Source: Candidatus Heimdallarchaeota archaeon
GTDB taxonomy: Archaea > Asgardarchaeota > Heimdallarchaeia > Hodarchaeales > Hodarchaeaceae
Assembly: GCA_011364965.1 (NCBI GenBank)
Contig: RDOB01000003.1
Location: 528,939-592,938, forward strand
Direction: 5' to 3'
Length of the DNA: 64,000 bases
The notes beneath the pieces are model-generated. The model worked only from the letters and a program-made list of their open reading frames with translations. It was not told the origin of the DNA and did no database searches. Positions 13,190 through 44,108 of this stretch are shown here, piece by piece. Each line of letters opens with the position of its first letter. Within the stretch, counting starts at the first letter, position 1. The position numbers were made by a program, and so were the translations under genes.

Positions 13190-14977
13190 TCATAGTTTTC
13201 TATAACGGATTAATGCAACACCGAAAGTTCCAGATACAAGAACCATTGCAACAAGAATTCCTCCTAAGAGATGAACTGGAAATTCTTTTAGCGGATAATT
13301 CGTTAAACTAGGGATTACACTCGAGTACTTAGGATCATGTATGATTCCATAACCATCCCAGTTAATGTAACATACAGAGTAATAATAAGTCCCTCCAATA
13401 AATGAATCATCAAATCCAAAGTCATCTGCAACACCTGCTTGATGATAAATATCCCTACCAAAAGCCCACATAGGTACAATTGCAATACCTACCTCGTATT
13501 CATTGTTATCCTTAATCCAAGTATAGATATTTTCAATTTCTACAGCAACGGGGGTAAACTCAAATTTCTCACTCTCAGAGCTAATTTTAAATTCAAAAGT
13601 TTGATCCCAATCACTAGAATTGTATACAGCTTCATCCGAGGACATAATCTCACCAGATTCTGCATTAGCCAATGTTAAGTCATAGGATTGAGGATTATAC
13701 GAGAATACAGACGACCAGTAGTTAATAGCTAGACTTAATTCCTGAAATTCAGGAGAAATCTCCCCTGTGTCACTATCTAGAAAATCGCCAACGATTTGAT
13801 CTACTTTTAACAGAGCTAAATTATCAACAACACTGAAACGAAACTTGAACTCAATCTCAGGTATTAAGACCTCAATGATCACTGGTTCATATTCTACAGG
13901 TGATTCATTCAGAGGATCAATAGACTCAATCATCCAAATATTATTAGACCAAAGCTCCGCATAAATATTAGTGAGTTTAATCGCCCAAACAATCTGATTA
14001 CTATCAACATATGGCAATACAACTTCTGATAGTGTAGAATTAACCAACCAGACCTCAAATACTAGTTCAGAAATGTCTGCCCTATACACTCCAGCAGGAT
14101 CAGTTGACAACGCCGTCTCTGCTAGCTCTCCTAGAGCATAATAACTATCGTAGGAAATATCAATAATTCCATTCTTATTTGAGTCATTAAAGATTGAAAA
14201 ACCCTCAAAGAAATGCTGGATCTCAAACGGGAAGTAGGTGTCTCCACCAGTTAATCTCAACAAACTTATTTGATAAACTGAGAAGCCAAACATTGAATAA
14301 CAACCACGATCTTCATAAATAAAACTCTCATTGTACCATGAAGCCCATTCATATTCAGGTGCAAGAATAACATCCACTGAATTTACGGGTTCATCAAACT
14401 CATTAAACCAAGTATAATTCTCCTGAATATAGTACTCATAACCCCATTCAAAGGAATAAATTCTCGTAGAATAGTATACTTCATCACCTGTGTAACTAAT
14501 AGGATCTACTTCCCAGATGGAACTTGTAGAAGAGAGATTAGTAATGAGAGATTGATCAGGATCGACAATAGTCTCCACAACAAACTCGGTTGAATTCCAA
14601 GATCCAGTCCAGTCCCAACGTGAATCAATATGAATATTATAAGCGCTTCCGTTAACATCATAGACTATTATCTGGTAGGGATCCCGGATCGGGCCAGTAG
14701 TGGGGTCAGGTTCACTAGGATCGACAGAAATCGTAGCTGTACTTGCATTTTCATATTTCTCTATCCAATTTTCTTCATAGGTTTCACTTAAGTTGTACCA
14801 GGAATAACGGACAAAGATACCAGGAAGCATCTCTTCAAAATTGCTGTTAGAAATCGATAAATGAGAAGGATCTGTGAAATTTAACAAAAATCCATTACAA
14901 GTTGTTGTGGAAGCAAAAATAAATAACAGAATAAAACTCCCAACTGTCGATATTGACAAAATTTTTCTTCGTTCCAT
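13190..14977 (-). CDS. Large acidic cell-surface glycoprotein with C-terminal membrane anchor
   Basis: Signal peptide from MERRK (ATG 14977, GGTGA upstream); DSNKNGIID, HDP motif, TM helix and RYRKL tail. Confidence 0.8.
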   Translation of the reverse strand: MERRKILSISTVGSFILLFIFASTTTCNGFLLNFTDPSHLSISNSNFEEMLPGIFVRYSWYNLSETYEENWIEKYENASTATISVDPSEPDPTTGPIRDPYQIIVYDVNGSAYNIHIDSRWDWTGSWNSTEFVVETIVDPDQSLITNLSSTSSIWEVDPISYTGDEVYYSTRIYSFEWGYEYYIQENYTWFNEFDEPVNSVDVILAPEYEWASWYNESFIYEDRGCYSMFGFSVYQISLLRLTGGDTYFPFEIQHFFEGFSIFNDSNKNGIIDISYDSYYALGELAETALSTDPAGVYRADISELVFEVWLVNSTLSEVVLPYVDSNQIVWAIKLTNIYAELWSNNIWMIESIDPLNESPVEYEPVIIEVLIPEIEFKFRFSVVDNLALLKVDQIVGDFLDSDTGEISPEFQELSLAINYWSSVFSYNPQSYDLTLANAESGEIMSSDEAVYNSSDWDQTFEFKISSESEKFEFTPVAVEIENIYTWIKDNNEYEVGIAIVPMWAFGRDIYHQAGVADDFGFDDSFIGGTYYYSVCYINWDGYGIIHDPKYSSVIPSLTNYPLKEFPVHLLGGILVAMVLVSGTFGVALIRYRKL

Positions 14978-34639: not shown

Positions 34640-36052
34640 ATGAAAAAATCTATTTGTATTCTCATTTTCGGTATTTTGGCAAGTTTTGGACTTTTATTAC
34701 ATTCTCCTACCACTATTAAAGCTACATTGCCATTAGAACATAATACAGGTTGGCAATGGGAAATTAATACTAATGATACGCTTATTTACAAAATTGTAGA
34801 TAATGTATTAGGAGCTCGTTATGAAGCCTATAATATTACTGGTGAACCTTGGGTTGCTTCTGGGGTCTTAGATGTTATAAATATAACTAAATTAATATTT
34901 AATCCTATAACTGGAACTGTTGAAAACTCAGAAGAGTTATTCCAATGTGTCGCAAGTCTGAGTCCAGGATTTTGGCAGCTTTCGTTTTACGATGCTGGAG
35001 TGAATACTGGTGGTTTTACTATGGCTTTCCCACTAATCCCTGTGAACACAAGCGGTTTGATAAATCAAACCCAGTTAGATGATTGGGGTGCAGCTATGAC
35101 AAACGATCTTGGAGGAACTACTTATGCGAGAGCTTTACAGTTACAAGAATATACTGTGGTAGGTGATAACGAACTTCAACTTTACAATTCGACTTATGGC
35201 TACTATGTCAATATGACTTATAATGACAATGGAATCCTTGAAACCGCGTGTGTAAAGATTGAATTAGAAATGGGTGGACCATTTATTCTAGAACAAACTA
35301 TAACAAAAGAAATTGGGGACATAATTAGTCTATTAAACCCAATAGATGAAACATCTCTTGCTGTAGAGGTTGGAGATAGTCTAATTTATCAATTTTATAT
35401 GAATGGAGTTCCCCAAGCGTTTCAAAGTTACAATATCACATATGTTGGGAAAATCACAGTTGACTATCAAGGTCAAGATAAATTATTTTGGGGAGCTAAT
35501 GCGACCCGATACAATTACGATACGCCCAGCGATACTTGGATATTGGATACAGAATGGCCTGAACAAACGATTGGCGGCGGAGATGATAATTATCTCCTTC
35601 TACGGATGGAGGGGCCAACAAATCTAGTCCATCCTGAAGGAACAAATGGATCAATTCTAGAAATGAATTTAGCGCCGATATATGGATCAGTGTATGGCGG
35701 ATATTTGGATATATGCGAAAAGGGTGACTGGTGGGTAAAATTCTCTAATACAACTACTGATCAATGGATACGAATAGAACTTGAACCAGAAACGGGTCTT
35801 TTACTGAATGTGACATTCACTCAAGGAGCTGATATAATAACAGAATATCTGATTGATGAAGATGATTTTCCACCCTCATCCTCGACGACAACTACAACAA
35901 CAACCACAACTACGACTACCTCTACAACTACAACCTCTCAAATGTCCAGTACAACTGAAACAACACCAGCTGTAACCTCCTTCCCAGGAGTAACAAGTAT
36001 TTTTCTAGCTATTGGAACTCTCATATTAGTGTTCAGAAGACAAAAGAAATAG
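34640..36052 (+). CDS. Cell-surface glycoprotein with Thr stalk and SFPG-TM-basic anchor
   Basis: Signal peptide, two related internal domains (DTLIY / DSLIY...YNIT), poly-Thr stretch, FRRQKK tail. Confidence 0.85.
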   Translation: MKKSICILIFGILASFGLLLHSPTTIKATLPLEHNTGWQWEINTNDTLIYKIVDNVLGARYEAYNITGEPWVASGVLDVINITKLIFNPITGTVENSEELFQCVASLSPGFWQLSFYDAGVNTGGFTMAFPLIPVNTSGLINQTQLDDWGAAMTNDLGGTTYARALQLQEYTVVGDNELQLYNSTYGYYVNMTYNDNGILETACVKIELEMGGPFILEQTITKEIGDIISLLNPIDETSLAVEVGDSLIYQFYMNGVPQAFQSYNITYVGKITVDYQGQDKLFWGANATRYNYDTPSDTWILDTEWPEQTIGGGDDNYLLLRMEGPTNLVHPEGTNGSILEMNLAPIYGSVYGGYLDICEKGDWWVKFSNTTTDQWIRIELEPETGLLLNVTFTQGADIITEYLIDEDDFPPSSSTTTTTTTTTTTTSTTTTSQMSSTTETTPAVTSFPGVTSIFLAIGTLILVFRRQKK

Positions 36053-36069
36053 TTATTTTTTCTTTTTTC
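36011..36069 (+). repeat. 59 bp direct repeat, copy 1 (gene 3' end plus oligo-T terminator)
   Basis: 56/59 identical to 43710-43768. Confidence 0.9.
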
Positions 36070-36298
36070 TTTTTTTTTGTATTCGATCTAATCAATATCC
36101 TCTTCATCACTCAATTCTTTTATCAAATGATCAAAATCAATTGGTCTAGGGTAAATTTTTTCCATTTCCAATTGAATTTTTGATAAATAGACATAATTCA
36201 GTTTGATCATGGATTAAAAAAGTGATCTCGTATGACTTGGGGGTAGATTTTGGCTTCCTTTCTTACCAATACAATTTGTTTGTTATGAACTAGTAGAA

Positions 36299-37398: not shown

Positions 37399-38913
37399 TT
37401 GAGATTAATGATCAACTCAGTGAAATCAGTAAATGAGGGAAAAATTGATTATACAACTGAAGTTGAGAGTCAGTTCATACAAGATTTCATTGTTTACTGG
37501 GAAGCAGTACGTAGTGCCATTTCTCATTATAAAAAGCTGGTAAGCAATCAAAAGGTCTCATTAGATCTTGTCAAAATCATTAGAAAAACCTGTGAAGATT
37601 TATTTTTATCGTGTACTCAACCTTTTTTCGAGAAATGGTGTAAAGTGTTCCCTTTCATTCAAAAGGATTCTGGATTCCTTTCCCTCTATTGGTCTTATGA
37701 GATTTCATTTAATAACTTTTCTTATCTCCTTCCCCATAAATTGGTTGTCTTTGAGCTATTTAAATGTGATAATGCGTGCATTCAAAATCTAAAACGCATT
37801 AAAAAACTCGAAGATCTACTTTTCTATTTAACTCGAACGTTCTGCGATTTGAACCTGAATTTAAACTCTAATGATAAAAAAATTCTCAATTATTTTACGT
37901 CTAAGGACTTTGTCTGCTCTTATAAAAGGTTTCCTACGCAAAAAAGGATTTCCGATGCCTTACGTATAAGCGAGGCAACCTATAATCGACGGGAGTCGAT
38001 TTTAGCTGAAACTTATGTTTTTAGTGCCATTTACCGTTTGAATATTAGCGCTCTAGGGTTTGAGACCTTATTTGTTTGTTCTCCCTTTGTGGTTGATAAT
38101 GCCTTTCTAACTCCGTCATCGTTAGCTTCAGTCCCCTATCGCGTGACCGATACCATTGGGGCTCAAAAGATCATTCAATATCAAGTTACGGATTATAATC
38201 TTTTCCAAAAGATCACAAGTTTGTATCAAGACAAAAATTCCCATATGACTAGACTTACAAATGGATATATCGGATGGAATCTACACTCTTTTCACCATAA
38301 TTCTTCTAAACGGTGGAAAGTGCTTCCTCCTATCCTATCTACTTACAATTGGGATGATGGCGTTATTAGCGAGGAAAAAGGATTCCATTACAATTTAATT
38401 CCCCAATCTTTAGCTCCTCATTTAACTGAGGTGGAGAGAGAGATACTAGCCCATTTTTCTAAATATGGTACCCGCTATGATGTTAATTTGGCTAAAAAAT
38501 TTGGGAAAACAGAAAAATATATCCGTAGATCGTGGAGTAGACTTCTATCTGAAAAATTAGTTCACCGTTTTCCTCTCTTTTCGAATATTGGATTAGACGC
38601 TAAACCCTGGATAACTCTTTTTGGCAGAAAGAATGGTGATTATAATAAGCAAAACAGTCTAATCCTCCGTATAGTTGAGCATCTAAAACTCCTACCCTTC
38701 ACTTTTATTTTTTATAAGTTAGCAGAGAGTTCAAAGGGTGATCCTCCTCTTCTTGCTGGTTTAATCTATATTCCAAGTTTTTGGATGACTGAATTCAATA
38801 TTAAATGGAATAAATTAGCTGAATTTGGCTTTCTACCCGAAATTGAATATTCCTACAATCGGTATATTCGTTGGAATATTGATATCACGAAGGTTTCATT
38901 CGGAGCTGTTTAA
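37399..38913 (+). CDS. Large regulator-like protein with two Lrp/AsnC-like winged-helix modules
   Basis: LNSNDKKIL...TQKRISDALRISEATYNRR...NISALG and LTEVEREIL...LAKKFGKTEKYIRRSWSRL...NIGL. Confidence 0.65.
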   Translation: MRLMINSVKSVNEGKIDYTTEVESQFIQDFIVYWEAVRSAISHYKKLVSNQKVSLDLVKIIRKTCEDLFLSCTQPFFEKWCKVFPFIQKDSGFLSLYWSYEISFNNFSYLLPHKLVVFELFKCDNACIQNLKRIKKLEDLLFYLTRTFCDLNLNLNSNDKKILNYFTSKDFVCSYKRFPTQKRISDALRISEATYNRRESILAETYVFSAIYRLNISALGFETLFVCSPFVVDNAFLTPSSLASVPYRVTDTIGAQKIIQYQVTDYNLFQKITSLYQDKNSHMTRLTNGYIGWNLHSFHHNSSKRWKVLPPILSTYNWDDGVISEEKGFHYNLIPQSLAPHLTEVEREILAHFSKYGTRYDVNLAKKFGKTEKYIRRSWSRLLSEKLVHRFPLFSNIGLDAKPWITLFGRKNGDYNKQNSLILRIVEHLKLLPFTFIFYKLAESSKGDPPLLAGLIYIPSFWMTEFNIKWNKLAEFGFLPEIEYSYNRYIRWNIDITKVSFGAV

Positions 38914-39538
38914 AGCGCTGTTGAACAGCGATCTGTATAGATAATATTTGAAAAGCCATTGAAATGTTCTCCCCTGTCCGTGCACTCGTTTCAATTAGAT
39001 GGATTCCGAAACCATAGTTTTCTCGACTTTTTTTATCATATTTTCTAGTTAAATATTCAGCATATTGTCTTGGTACGAGGTTCAATCCACTTTCTTTAAG
39101 ATCTATCTTATTTGCAACTAATATTAAGGGGATTGGTCCTTTCATATTATGTTCCCATAGTTCTCCTATCCAGTTCTCTAAGTTCTTAAAGGAGTCTCTA
39201 TTGGTAATATCATAGATGAGCAATGCGCCATTGGTACCCTTATAAAATGTCTGTCGTACCTCAGAAAAATGTGGTTGCCCTGCTAAATCCCATATCTGAT
39301 ATTTAATTTCCCTAGATCCCAAGTTTACCACATATGTTGAAAAATCTGCTCCTATTGTTGCTGAATAAACGGGATTAAATCCGTGACCAATGAACCGTCG
39401 TCTTATCGAGGTTTTTCCCACAGCTCCATTTCCGATAAGGACTATTTTCCATAATGTCCTAGAGTCCTTTGGAAAAAGGAATTCGACATCCAAATCAGTT
39501 TCAAAATCTGATGGTAAATTAGTAGTAACCCCGTTCAA
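38885..39538 (-). CDS. Rab-like small GTPase (possible upstream ACG start at 39592)
   Basis: GNGAVGKT, TIGADF, IWDLAGQ, FYKG, YDIT, NKID, ETSA. Confidence 0.93.
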   Translation of the reverse strand: MNGVTTNLPSDFETDLDVEFLFPKDSRTLWKIVLIGNGAVGKTSIRRRFIGHGFNPVYSATIGADFSTYVVNLGSREIKYQIWDLAGQPHFSEVRQTFYKGTNGALLIYDITNRDSFKNLENWIGELWEHNMKGPIPLILVANKIDLKESGLNLVPRQYAEYLTRKYDKKSRENYGFGIHLIETSARTGENISMAFQILSIQIAVQQRFKQLRMKPS

Positions 39539-39595
39539 TAGTTCTCTTAAATTATCGCGGAATTCAAATTCATTTTCATTCTTGTTGAACGTACT

Positions 39596-41119
39596 TTATC
39601 CTCCTTTAGAATTACCGTCTTGTGGATTCGTCTTCAGCTCTGGAAGAACAATAGAGAAAGTGGATCCTTTTTTATATTCACTCTCAACATAGATTGCTCC
39701 TTTATGGAGATACACTAATTCACGAGCTAGTGCTAATCCAATTCCTGTTCCTTGAATGTGTGAAACATCATCTGATCTATAAAACCTCGTAAAAATGTGT
39801 GGAATATCCTTTTTTGAGATTCCCATCCCCTGATCAGTAATTTCAATTAATGTTTCCTTATTCTCTTCTCCAGAAGAATATTTTCCCTTATAAGACTCGG
39901 TGACCTTAATAGTTATATTAGAGTTATTCGAAGAATACTTAATGGCATTATCAAGTATGATTCGGAATATTTGTTCAATCCGATGAACATCTCCCATTAA
40001 TTCTACCTGTTCTGAGCCTAAGACTTGAACGTTAAGTTTTTTCTCATAAATTCGCGGTTCTAATTGAGCTATGACTGAATAAATAGTCCCCAAGATATGG
40101 TACTTTTCCCATTTCAATTTTAAGCCTTTCCCAGCGTCGAAACGGGATAATATTAGTAGGTCATCCACCTGCTGATTTAATATTGCTGCACTTCTCCCCA
40201 TAGAATTAATTATCTCGATTTTTTCCTCCTCTGTAAGCTTCGTTCCATACCTTTGAAGGTTTATTACTGATAAATTCAACGCAGAGATAGGAGTTCTAAG
40301 TTCATGGGAAACAACAGATACAAACTTCTTTCGGAGATTTTCAAACTCGATAAATGGAGTAATATCCCTAAATTCAATAATAGAAACAAGAGAATTCTGG
40401 TTTATGGAAGAATTTAACGCGACTGTAAATTCTAGAAAGAGATTTGATGTTACTTCAACTACAACCTTTTGGTTAATGTCGTAAGTTAAGAAAAGTGTTC
40501 TAATGGTGTCAAAAAAGGGGTGACCTGTACTAAGTACGAAATTCAATTCACATACTCTTATTTCTGATAAGATTCTTTTGATTAGTCTTTCTGCTGCTGT
40601 ATTGATGATAATAGCCTTTCCATCTTGATCTAATACAATTACTCCATCTTTTATATTATTAAGTATCAATTCAATCTGTTTTTTTTCTCGATTGACAATT
40701 TCGCTTTGTGATCTAAGATGATCAATTATTTCTTCTAAGTAATCGTGGCTTAAACCAATCTTATCTTCAAAATCTGTTGAGAATGAAATTTGCTTCAATA
40801 GAAGAAATATGGAATTTAAATTAATGTACTTTGTTTTGAAATAGAACGAGATAATCTCTCCATTGTTTCTCAAGCAGCGTAATACACCCGTATTATGCAT
40901 TTTTTCTGAATAAATTGGATATTTGTAAATATAGTCTAAGTCTAGGTTATAGATATATGCTGAAATATCTTTTCCAATCATCTCTTGTTCTGAATATTTT
41001 AATATATCTGTTAGATATATATTAACATATTGTATTTTATGCTCCTTGAGATAAATAATCCCCATATCTAAATTATTTAAGATTTCTTGAAATCCTTCTG
41101 AATTCACCGTTTGATTCAT
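39596..41119 (-). CDS. Cytoplasmic PAS-domain sensor histidine kinase
   Basis: Two PAS-like segments; SHELRTP (H272), DNAIKYS, DQGMG, FTRF, GTGIGL; no TM helix. Confidence 0.93.
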   Translation of the reverse strand: MNQTVNSEGFQEILNNLDMGIIYLKEHKIQYVNIYLTDILKYSEQEMIGKDISAYIYNLDLDYIYKYPIYSEKMHNTGVLRCLRNNGEIISFYFKTKYINLNSIFLLLKQISFSTDFEDKIGLSHDYLEEIIDHLRSQSEIVNREKKQIELILNNIKDGVIVLDQDGKAIIINTAAERLIKRILSEIRVCELNFVLSTGHPFFDTIRTLFLTYDINQKVVVEVTSNLFLEFTVALNSSINQNSLVSIIEFRDITPFIEFENLRKKFVSVVSHELRTPISALNLSVINLQRYGTKLTEEEKIEIINSMGRSAAILNQQVDDLLILSRFDAGKGLKLKWEKYHILGTIYSVIAQLEPRIYEKKLNVQVLGSEQVELMGDVHRIEQIFRIILDNAIKYSSNNSNITIKVTESYKGKYSSGEENKETLIEITDQGMGISKKDIPHIFTRFYRSDDVSHIQGTGIGLALARELVYLHKGAIYVESEYKKGSTFSIVLPELKTNPQDGNSKGG

Positions 41120-41131
41120 GTATAGTTCCCC

Positions 41132-42520
41132 CTAAAACCGGATTTCCCAGGTTGTGTGCCGTTCTTCTTTATTGATAATTTTAGGTGATTCAATATGAAA
41201 GGTCTTTAGGATTCCTTCCAAAAAACCAGTGAGTAAAACATCAGTTAATTCACTGGGGATACCCTCATTTTTCCAATCTTGAACAGTTAATTCAATTGAT
41301 TGGCTCCTACGATTCATTATAAATGATTTTGATGTTAATTTTAGAGGTTTCGCGTTCCAGTCACCCTTCAGATAATTTAACCAAGATTTTTGTAATAATA
41401 TAGCATATCCTGTTCCTAAAATACGTACTCCCTGTTGGATTGATGGGAGCATATTTGTAAAATCCTCCTGACTTGTTCCTAAAGTTGGTAGAATAGTAAA
41501 TTGGGGGAGAATTACCTGTTCAAAATAATCCAATAACTCATCATTTAATAATTTCTGAAGCATTACATCTGGGAGCGAAAAATAAATAGTTTGTAATAGA
41601 GCTATATTACTACTTTGGTCATTTACGCTTGTAAGGAAAAAAGTTGCGATTTTTAAATAATCTTTAAAGTGCTTTAACACTATTTGTATATTTTTATTTA
41701 ATTCAATTCGTTTTTCCGGATCATACTTGTGTAAAAAAATGGAAAGATTTACATTAGACTCATTTTCATTGCGTACCAATGACCATAGCTTATCTAAGTA
41801 GTCTAGGGCTGGTAAGAAGGAAACAGGATCCTGTATATCTACAACATAAATTAAGGTTGAGGTTTTTCCCCAATAAGTCATGTCTTTTAGATATTGACGT
41901 CGATAAAGTTCTTGTCCTCCAAAATCCAATATTAAGATATTCTCTTTTAGGAATTCTTCGAAATCTATGTGCTGAACAACTCCTATGGTTGGCTTAATTG
42001 TATGCAAACGATCTTTCGATTCCTTTTTAAAGAATAATTGAATCATAGACGTTTTTCCGGCTCTAGATAATCCTAGAAGAGCTATTCTTATGACAGGTTT
42101 TTTCATGGATTGAGAAAGCTGAAATTCTTGATTTTTTCGAGTTAATGGACTCAGAATTGGTAAAATTAGTTTTTCAAACATTTCAGATTCTGGAAAATAG
42201 CCTTTGTCTTGGTCTTTCAACAATTGAAATGTTTCTTTAGCAATTAAATCGAAGTATCTCTCTACTTCTTCGGTTTGTATTTTTTCTTTTAGAAATAAAT
42301 ATAATCCGAAGGTTCTATATGTCCTTACATAGATAATTAAGTCAGAAAACCTAATTTCTTGAATTGCACTTTGAATTACTGCCTCTGAAAAATTTTGTAT
42401 CGCAACCATAAATCCAGAGATCAGCTGAGGATCCTGTAAAGTATATTTTGAGCTTTCTTCAGAATAACTCCATACTTCTATCCCTGCATCCGTAGAGATA
42501 GCAAATCTTACAAACATCAT
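41132..42520 (-). CDS. Longin-like / Rag-like small GTPase / V4R(Bet3)-like multidomain protein
   Basis: N-terminal DPQLISGFMVAIQNF; GLSRAGKTS, PTIG, DFGGQ, HKYD, TSV; C-terminal LLTGFLEGIL. Confidence 0.82.
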   Translation of the reverse strand: MMFVRFAISTDAGIEVWSYSEESSKYTLQDPQLISGFMVAIQNFSEAVIQSAIQEIRFSDLIIYVRTYRTFGLYLFLKEKIQTEEVERYFDLIAKETFQLLKDQDKGYFPESEMFEKLILPILSPLTRKNQEFQLSQSMKKPVIRIALLGLSRAGKTSMIQLFFKKESKDRLHTIKPTIGVVQHIDFEEFLKENILILDFGGQELYRRQYLKDMTYWGKTSTLIYVVDIQDPVSFLPALDYLDKLWSLVRNENESNVNLSIFLHKYDPEKRIELNKNIQIVLKHFKDYLKIATFFLTSVNDQSSNIALLQTIYFSLPDVMLQKLLNDELLDYFEQVILPQFTILPTLGTSQEDFTNMLPSIQQGVRILGTGYAILLQKSWLNYLKGDWNAKPLKLTSKSFIMNRRSQSIELTVQDWKNEGIPSELTDVLLTGFLEGILKTFHIESPKIINKEERHTTWEIRF

Positions 42521-42529
42521 ACTTCCTTT

Positions 42530-43411
42530 CTATTGTGATTCAATGGTTAGAATATCTGATATTTTCTCCCAATATGAGGATATATTCCAATTCTTTCCAG
42601 TTTTTATCAGACCAGAGATGGTCTCAAGTATTTCTTTCACCCTTAAAGACATTAAATAATTAATTTTTGTTGCTAGAGTAACCAACATAAATTGTCTTTC
42701 TCCTCCTCTTACAGAATCATCAGGAATCGAATCAAAATAGAGATATCCATCTTTTTCAATATTATAGATTCTTAATAAAACACTCTGAGATTCATAATAT
42801 TTTGAATGTCCATAGATTGAGACTGTTGTTTGGAACAGTTGAACACCTATTTCCTCGAGGTCAAAATCATCAACTGTATTAGGATAGTAATTCTGAATTT
42901 TCGGGCCAAAATTTTCATCCCATAATACATAAAATAAAATTACATCATTTTTTTGCTGAATTTTATAATCATTCTTAATTTCAAGAGATTCTAAAACTGA
43001 ATTTCTGATTCTCTCACTCATTTTTCTGTATTTTAATCCTTTAGCTATTTTTCCTTTTATTGTTGCAAGTAGATCTTCCTCCTCAAATGGTTTTATTATA
43101 TAGTCATCTATCCCGAGAGTTTTAGCAAATCGAACGTCAGCAGGTGAACTTTTTGCAGTCAAGAAAATGAAAGGGATAAGGTTCCAATCTGGATTGTTAG
43201 AAACTTCTTGAAGAAAGTCATAACCATTCATCTCTGGCATCATGATATCGCTAAGGATTAAATCAGGGGGATTTGAGAGATTATCTAATATTTCTAAAGC
43301 TTCTTTTCCATTTGAGCCTGTATAAACTTTATATCCATTGCATGTCAGAAAAATCCTCATATTTAACATGATTTCTTGATTATCTTCAACAACAAGGATT
43401 GTATTTGACAA
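42530..43411 (-). CDS. Response regulator: receiver domain fused to a longin/uDENN-like domain
   Basis: VVED, SD55IMMP, LTAK, KPF; C-terminal WDENFGP and IPDDSVRGGERQF. Confidence 0.88.
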   Translation of the reverse strand: MSNTILVVEDNQEIMLNMRIFLTCNGYKVYTGSNGKEALEILDNLSNPPDLILSDIMMPEMNGYDFLQEVSNNPDWNLIPFIFLTAKSSPADVRFAKTLGIDDYIIKPFEEEDLLATIKGKIAKGLKYRKMSERIRNSVLESLEIKNDYKIQQKNDVILFYVLWDENFGPKIQNYYPNTVDDFDLEEIGVQLFQTTVSIYGHSKYYESQSVLLRIYNIEKDGYLYFDSIPDDSVRGGERQFMLVTLATKINYLMSLRVKEILETISGLIKTGKNWNISSYWEKISDILTIESQ

Positions 43412-43709: not shown

Positions 43710-43768
43710 ATTGGAACTCTAATATTAGTTTTCAGAAGACAAAAGAAGTAGTTATTTTTTCTTTTTTC
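43710..43768 (+). repeat. 59 bp direct repeat, copy 2
   Basis: Encodes IGTLILVFRRQKK* plus T-tract, same as 36011-36069. Confidence 0.9.
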
Positions 43769-44108
43769 ATTATATGTTCAATTTATGTTGGTTATAGGTA
43801 ATACCCAGTAAACTAAAAATAACTCTAATATAGAACCTTCAATCCTAAACTACCTCAATAATTTCAAGAATTCTTTAAATAATCAAACTTTCTTAATTGA
43901 TAGAGTTAATCCATTATCTGTTAAAAAGATTAGGCCCCTTGGTTGGATTAGAAAAAATCCATCTATTCTTGTTAAATTATTTTGAAACATCAGAAATTAC
44001 GTCAAAAATGTAAAGATTGGATCTTGAACTAGGAAAAATACTTTTCATAAAATATAAAGCACAATTATAATTAATAAACTACAGAAAAATGATTGGTGGA
44101 GAGCTGTC

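Follow-up and report, generated by a model that had tools for sequence, protein, structure and literature searches.

The closest described relatives of the protein considered here are the eukaryotic Rag/Gtr GTPases (RagA-D, Gtr1/Gtr2; PF04670), in which the G domain is followed by a C-terminal roadblock domain, and the Rag-like GTPases of Asgard archaea, namely LokiRagO (PDB 8yl2) and LokiRagM (PDB 8zla, 9m28). Fusions of the longin-GTPase, GTPase-roadblock and longin-GTPase-roadblock types were published for MK-D1, and the GTPase genes of MK-D1 were reported to be generally without operon partners (PMC10933270). The same paper describes a Heimdall longin-TRAPPC3/V4R fusion (MBD3190748.1) and Thor-TRAPPC3 (PDB 7yh2), whose structural kin are given as BcsD, Bet3/TRAPP, DmpR/PoxR and H-NOX, and it ties a zinc-cysteine feature of Asgard TRAPPC3/V4R proteins to cavity formation. 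MetOD1 is a V4R-like domain with three cysteines (PMC5847659). Longin dimers serve as GTPase platforms, and dimers of longin and roadblock domains generally do so (PMC3747258).

The longins with GAP activity, eukaryotic and Asgard alike, are marked by a WD motif, a Gly-Pro motif and an arginine finger; the partner GTPase was left open (PMC12290439). Asgard NPRL2-like longins fused to two-component domains have been reported (PMC12290439; Liu et al., bioRxiv 10.1101/2020.10.19.343400), and Liu et al. proposed that two-component systems with eukaryote-like regulators form the core of growth control in Asgard archaea. Each component found here, namely the longin-Rag, longin-TRAPPC3 and receiver-longin fusions as well as the arginine motif, has been published. 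The architectures in the text of PMC10933270 include no Rag-like GTPase with a V4R/TRAPPC3-fold tail. In the literature outside subscription journals, no description of a longin-Rag-V4R protein or of an Asgard kinase-GTPase operon was found, and a prior description in subscription papers is possible.

The window, that is, the whole stretch of DNA that was analyzed, comprises 64,000 nucleotides of a Candidatus Heimdallarchaeota archaeon genome (Hodarchaeales-type Asgard archaeon; contig RDOB01000003.1), and all coordinates without a locus or genome handle refer to it. The Asgard lineage of this organism is often placed nearest to eukaryotes. A run of four co-oriented genes encodes a receiver-longin protein, the GTPase, a PAS kinase and a Rab-like GTPase, in this order. 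The features are as follows:

42530-43411, minus strand: response regulator (293 aa), a receiver with Asp55 fused to a GAP-type longin; the gene ends 9 nt upstream of the GTPase gene
42533-42961, minus strand: predicted FLCN/SMCR8/C9orf72-type longin output domain of the regulator, with Trp164-Asp165, Gly169-Pro170 and the candidate arginine finger Arg235 (codon 42707-42709); from motif conservation and weak matches
41132-42520, minus strand: longin - Rag-like GTPase - V4R/Bet3-fold protein (P0001); from the 462-aa ORF, Pfam, homologues and the AlphaFold2 model
42143-42517, minus strand: longin-like domain, residues 2-126, Mon1/Fuz/Intu type, without WD / Gly-Pro motif; from AlphaFold2 topology and weak Pfam matches in the family
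41573-42094, minus strand: G domain of the Rag-like type, spanning residues 143-316, in which G1-G5 and the switch-II Gln203 are all intact; from Pfam, structure matches and a tree
41135-41569, minus strand: predicted V4R/H-NOX/Bet3-superfamily domain, residues 318-462, cysteine-free; from the model, fold searches and sister-group homology
39596-41119, minus strand: soluble PAS-PAS histidine kinase (507 aa) with His272; the gene starts 12 nt downstream of the GTPase gene
38885-39538, minus strand: small GTPase of the Rab-like (RasL) kind, about 217 aa, which closes the run and has no C-terminal cysteine; from Pfam and the ORF

The 462-aa gene is real, its domain content is established, and the catalytic motifs of all four operon genes are intact. 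About 30 full-length homologues (26-73% identity) have all three regions in common, with G1, Q203, H264-K265-x-D267, W380, G436 and W458 invariant, and their alignment places the start of most homologues at the second ATG (42517). A profile search with the GTPase family yielded 78 representatives at E ≤ 1e-30. The assembly across the operon is sound: one contig of run X4, possibly the source sample, spans the operon with 2 differences, and in run X13, from another study, the gene is covered with 0 differences by two contigs that abut at 41141/41142. Identical DNA was present in sediment runs from marine, estuary and mangrove sites. The family is patchily distributed, with members at E ≤ 1e-40 detected in at least 14 of the 400 Asgard genomes. 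In the source genome, which is 87% complete, the gene is single copy and no RagA/RagC-type partner was seen; tandem and divergent paralogues are present in relatives.

The full-length AlphaFold2 model (mean pLDDT 77) agrees with the three-domain reading, longin-like, Rag-like and V4R/Bet3-like, made in the earlier note. It consists of a b-b-a-b-b-b-a-a region (residues 3-126), the G domain (residues 144-313) and an a-a-b-b-a-b-b region (residues 318-461), and it contains no roadblock tail. A sequence scan showed that the 462-aa protein has no cysteine residues.

The motifs listed in the earlier note were all located in the minus-strand ORF as stated, namely G1 (residues 150-158), G3 DFGGQ (199-203), G4 HKYD (264-267), G5 TSV (297-299) and a GFLEGIL segment (432-438); the G2 threonine is Thr178. 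The Rag/Gtr-like signature recognized there was borne out by Pfam, where the best family was Gtr1_RagA (63.7 bits, cut-off 22, residues 146-305), compared with 50.8 bits for Arf. H264, K265, D267 and Q203 are invariant in 30 of 30 family members. A small correction applies to G5, which is TSV in only two of the 30, TTI being usual (18 of 30). The closest solved structures, in both sequence and fold, were the Asgard LokiRagO and LokiRagM and human RagC/RagD, the latter being the best eukaryotic matches. Fold comparison gave Z 21.3 for LokiRagO (rmsd 2.5, 168 aligned), Z 19.3 for RagD and Z 17.3 for LokiRagM, with the best Arf/Sar-type rows at Z 16.6-17.3. Sequence matches to the Asgard Rag-like structures (E 2e-15 to 4e-15) were confined to the G domain, and the whole-protein fold searches in effect tested this domain alone.

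In a quick, midpoint-rooted tree of G domains alone, built from Asgard sequences only (no eukaryotic ones), the His-G4 proteins were split from the Rab-like and Arf-like ones (SH-aLRT 99). All V4R-tailed Rag-like proteins formed one clade (SH-aLRT 96), inside which the cysteine-free family of the query was a clade of its own (SH-aLRT 98). The Arf/ArfR identity given by the NCBI label was ruled out by the His-type G4, the lower Pfam and fold scores and the separate clade. The protein belongs with the Asgard Rag-like group. It shares with the eukaryotic Rag/Gtr proteins the G-domain fold, the His-Lys-x-Asp G4 and the switch-II Gln, but, lacking a roadblock tail, it does not count as a Rag by the eukaryotic definition; instead it has an N-terminal longin and a V4R/Bet3-fold tail. 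In addition, unlike the eukaryotic proteins, it is single copy and encoded together with a two-component system.

The secondary structure predicted for the N-terminal domain (strands 3-10 and 15-20, helix 31-49, strands 55-58, 61-67 and 71-77, helices 83-100 and 112-126) follows the longin order b-b-a-b-b-b-a-a. The query domain itself had no Pfam match. Weak matches occurred in its family, to Fuz_longin_1 (4 of 63 members, best E 1e-4) and Intu_longin_1 (3 of 63), which correspond to the first longin of Fuz/Mon1 and of Intu/Ccz1, respectively. The Atlas feature search gave a lead of 0.87 for this domain, all Atlas leads being below 0.9. The family profile aligned to the longin of a longin-V4R protein from the same genome (hhalign 52%, E 1.4e-4). 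Profile searches of PDB sequences with the N- and C-terminal alignments returned composition-driven or chance matches only. The topology and the weak profiles indicate that the domain is likely a longin. The WD / Gly-Pro motif of the GAP longins was found in none of the 63 family members, and helix 1 was the best conserved part. A split form was observed in another Asgard family, where in two genomes a separate longin gene lies directly 5' of a Rag-V4R gene, with a 3-nt gap at L119:6875-8395 and a 4-nt overlap at L120:7443-8872; the cysteines are kept and Rab-like genes flank these loci.

The C-terminal tail, modeled alone from 75 sequences, gave an a-a-b-b-a-b-b model with a pLDDT of 86. The best 10 of 48,161 chains in the fold search of this model were all BcsD, Bet3/TRAPP, DmpR/PoxR or H-NOX proteins, which is the set named for Thor-TRAPPC3, although each match was modest (Z 5.8-7.5, below 8; rmsd 3.3-4.5; 94-117 aligned). 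Foldseek returned the same families at E 1e-3 to 2e-2, below significance, and the tail was no nearer to Bet3 than to BcsD, DmpR or H-NOX. In a sister group of more distant Rag-like relatives, this tail is also present and has three cysteines spaced as in V4R/MetOD1, and the query tail aligned to it with hhalign 97% and E 3.5e-11. The Pfam search with the query tail gave no V4R or TRAPP family; within the tail family, MetOD1 (2 of 75) and TRAPP (1 of 75) were matched only at E 0.02-0.06. No direct profile link was found between the cysteine-free tail and the Pfam-V4R proteins of the same genome, and the sister group showed a weak link (E 0.006) to one of them. A V4R/H-NOX/Bet3-superfamily fold of the tail is thereby supported at the level of models. 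A roadblock identity was ruled out, given the tail's own model and its fold matches. The model also shows that the protein ends with the last strand of the tail and has no Bet3-type C-terminal extension.

The flanking folds of the GTPase are those of the longin-TRAPPC3/V4R fusions, with the difference that a G domain lies between them and the zinc cysteines are gone. The zinc-ligand positions are replaced throughout the whole family of the query, while the sister group keeps its three cysteines. The V4R-like pocket for a lipid or small ligand that had been proposed in the earlier note is unsupported, because every zinc ligand is lost in the family and the protein has no cysteine at all; judged from the sequence, there is no support for zinc binding, palmitoylation or a ligand cavity. 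The source genome also encodes a longin-V4R fusion without a GTPase (G000:C11, about 13378-13527; L194), with Pfam V4R above the cut-off and the full cysteine set; it is the protein whose longin was aligned by the N-terminal family profile.

The sequence scan of the PAS kinase revealed no transmembrane hydrophobic stretch. The Rab-like protein has an intact switch-II Gln; its open frame (stop-to-stop 38885-39595) begins right after the kinase stop codon, in the same frame. Receiver, kinase or Rab-like neighbors were present in all six homologues examined first. Neighbors within 5 kb were then counted for 20 family genes from 11 assemblies, 56 other multi-domain Rag-like genes, 23 bare Rag-like genes and random positions in the source genome. 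A GAP-type longin was found near 11 of the 20 family genes (8 of 11 assemblies), 0 of 56 other multi-domain genes, 14 of 23 bare ones and 0.5% of random positions; a kinase near 12/20, 5/56, 15/23 and 3.4%; and a Rab-like gene near 16/20 (9 of 11 assemblies), 2/56, 0/23 and 7.6%, respectively, these counts being descriptive, as most assemblies belong to a single genus and lack independence, and contig ends often truncate the control loci. The operon is conserved and family-specific, and gene order and orientation vary among assemblies. A search for a clade of Rab-like partners that co-evolves with the family gave none, the neighboring Rab-like proteins falling into several separate clades.

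The regulator, in turn, is also found with bare Rag-like GTPases of 180 aa, which lack the longin and make up a clade of their own; in Lokiarchaeia it mostly accompanies one of these. Since it pairs both with these and with the GTPases of the family, its constant partner is the Rag-like G domain, and gene context gives good support to the link of the GTPase to the neighboring regulator. The longin domain of the regulator was found in 165 of 400 Asgard genomes; in the largest family it mostly lies in a cassette together with a kinase and one of the bare 180-aa GTPases of that other clade. Among the homologues of this longin, W, G, P and R are invariant (54 of 54) and D is present in 49 of 54. 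The best PDB sequence match, at E 0.29, spanned the whole domain and was to the longin of C9orf72, and the Pfam Folliculin match over the Arg loop was weak (E 0.04-0.18). These weak matches and the position of the motif make Arg235 a candidate counterpart of the FLCN/SMCR8 arginine. The WD, Gly-Pro and Arg motifs are common to the regulator and the FLCN-FNIP2, NPRL2-NPRL3 and C9orf72-SMCR8 complexes. Unlike in these complexes, a single regulator chain bears both the W-D motif known from the C9orf72 side and the arginine of the SMCR8/FLCN side, and it has no DENN domain.

Two receiver-longin paralogues stand in tandem at L081, L083, L110 and L192. At L114:9460-10041, the gene immediately 5' of a family GTPase encodes a GAP-type longin without a receiver. 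The source genome has a second longin of the GAP type (WD..GP, RG) at G000:C9 190443-190841, which starts a 649-aa open frame and is followed by repeat-like helical sequence; weak matches like it (E about 1e-11 to 1e-15) occur in most genomes of the genus.

These results lead us to favor, tentatively and as plausible rather than probable, a reading in which the GTPase is the output of the two-component system. The PAS kinase would phosphorylate Asp55 of the regulator, which would alter the dimer state of the regulator and switch its GAP function on or off. Two GAP-type longins, from a homodimer here and from tandem paralogues in relatives, might then form an FLCN/SMCR8-like GAP supplying Arg235 to the G domain with its Gln203. 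The longin of the GTPase and its cysteine-free tail would replace the roadblock for dimerization and as a platform for partners, and would be neither a GAP half nor a small-molecule sensor. A dimeric GAP acting on the G domain appears most likely because the regulator has both halves of the C9orf72-SMCR8 active-site signature in one chain, several relatives have tandem paralogues, and the Rag-like G domain is the constant partner. At this locus the GAP target is ambiguous, since the Rab-like gene is an equally constant neighbor (16 of 20).

The alternative that fares best, while still unlikely, is the one put forward in the earlier note: the longin of the GTPase would pair with the arginine-bearing longin of the regulator, as FNIP2 does with FLCN and NPRL3 with NPRL2, so that the GAP is built on its own substrate. 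The part of this claim that ties the GTPase to the regulator was upheld by gene context, and the two genes are only 9 nt apart. All three eukaryotic longin GAPs are heterodimers, in which two non-catalytic partners (FNIP2 and NPRL3) lack Gly-Pro (PMC12290439), as the GTPase longin does; conservation in this longin is highest in helix 1, through which longins usually dimerize (PMC3747258); and three receiver-longin cassettes (L156, L164, L167) contain a stand-alone longin weakly like it. The heterodimer itself is weakened by the Lokiarchaeia cassettes, most of which have a bare Rag-like GTPase and no such longin detected; as the regulator there mostly accompanies a longin-less G domain, a longin heterodimer is not required. 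Moreover, the regulator already bears both W-D and Arg, the GTPase longin resembles the Mon1/Fuz types, and the profiles of the two longins are not detectably alike (hhalign 1%). The split longin stays fixed before the Rag-V4R gene (L119, L120), an arrangement suggesting that its partner is the GTPase module to which it belongs. Complex prediction for the two longin domains scored 0.29 (mark 0.32) and was counted neither for nor against.

Next in rank, and distinctly unlikely, is mere co-location of the genes in a signalling island, with the tail a degenerate sensor or a plain dimerization domain. The variable order and orientation, the 62-nt direct repeat bracketing the block and the patchy family (at least 14 of 400 genomes) are consistent with it, but the link between the regulator and a Rag-like G domain is seen again in two or more distinct clades of GTPases and in different classes, compared with 0 of 56 other Rag-like genes.

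A TRAPP-like relay, to which we give a small chance, would have the dimerized longin and Bet3-fold domains form an exchange surface for the Rab-like GTPase, with the nucleotide bound by the Rag-like domain acting as the gate. The TRAPP core (Bet3, Bet5, Trs23) and Mon1-Ccz1 resemble the GTPase in longin type, Bet3-like fold and the adjacent Rab-like GTPase; the longin type is that of the Mon1-Ccz1 GEFs, the tail matches Bet3/TRAPP folds and the TRAPP active site consists of two longins and Bet3 (PMC10152722). The frequency of the Rab-like gene near family genes (16/20, compared with 2/56, 0/23 and 7.6% at random) also argues for it. However, the Rab-like neighbors belong to several clades and form no single co-evolving lineage, and the tail matches BcsD, DmpR and H-NOX equally well. 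The GTPase differs from TRAPP and Mon1-Ccz1 in being one chain with an inserted GTPase and in having no palmitoylation cysteine; exchange by TRAPP involves the extended C-terminus of Bet3 and needs Trs31 (PMC3747258, PMC10152722), whereas the GTPase ends at the last strand. It is improbable, too, that the operon holds an entire kinase - GAP - Rag - Rab cascade, in which a phosphorelay governs an FLCN-like GAP for the Rag-like domain while the longin and Bet3-fold domains of the GTPase serve, in a single chain, as a TRAPP-like exchange factor for the Rab-like protein. The least probable alternative, in which the regulator is a GAP for the Rab-like protein and the three-domain GTPase a parallel output or scaffold, fits the Rab-like gene with its intact switch-II Gln in the same operon, the Rab-like domains fused to kinases that tie such proteins to the relay (L084, L085) and the reported action of C9orf72-SMCR8 on Arf and possibly Rab proteins (PMC12290439), but a Rab-like gene is within 5 kb of 0 of 23 bare Rag-like loci, most of which have the regulator, and L114 and L115 keep the GAP-type longin and the GTPase without a Rab-like neighbor.

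The regulator and the GTPase form a testable enzyme-regulator pair with putative GAP activity. The operon names candidate GTPases for the arginine-finger longins of Asgard archaea, a question posed in PMC12290439, and its four soluble, intact proteins allow in vitro tests of the ideas on the longin-GAP partner and on two-component growth control. The GTPase itself indicates that a Bet3/V4R fold can stand in for the roadblock tail of a Rag, so that elements of longin, Rag and TRAPP proteins are united in a single polypeptide. The value of the locus is limited in that all its parts are published, the family is patchy and the GAP idea can be tested just as well with the simpler cassettes of Lokiarchaeia.

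Several further observations were made on the family and its surroundings. A second, divergent longin-Rag-V4R clade with an altered P-loop (L081:8532-9839, L083:11289-12704, L001:4189-5601, L116, L117, L118) is often arranged tail to tail with the main family; the two are candidates for a RagA/RagC-like heterodimer. In genome G068, family paralogues are split into two ORFs (L110:7933-9321, L111:3946-5415). Beside family members, a Rab-like GTPase is fused N-terminally to PAS, HisKA and HATPase domains (L084:3572-5320, L085:11005-12247). The 62-nt direct repeat (36011-36072 and 43710-43771, 94% identical) brackets a 7.7-kb signalling block and copies the 3' end of a surface-protein gene (34640-36052); it is possibly an integration scar. 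No contig joint skipping the bracketed block was present in four runs, and contigs cannot show absence. In three assemblies (L081, L086, L108), the signalling cluster adjoins SMC/ScpB genes.
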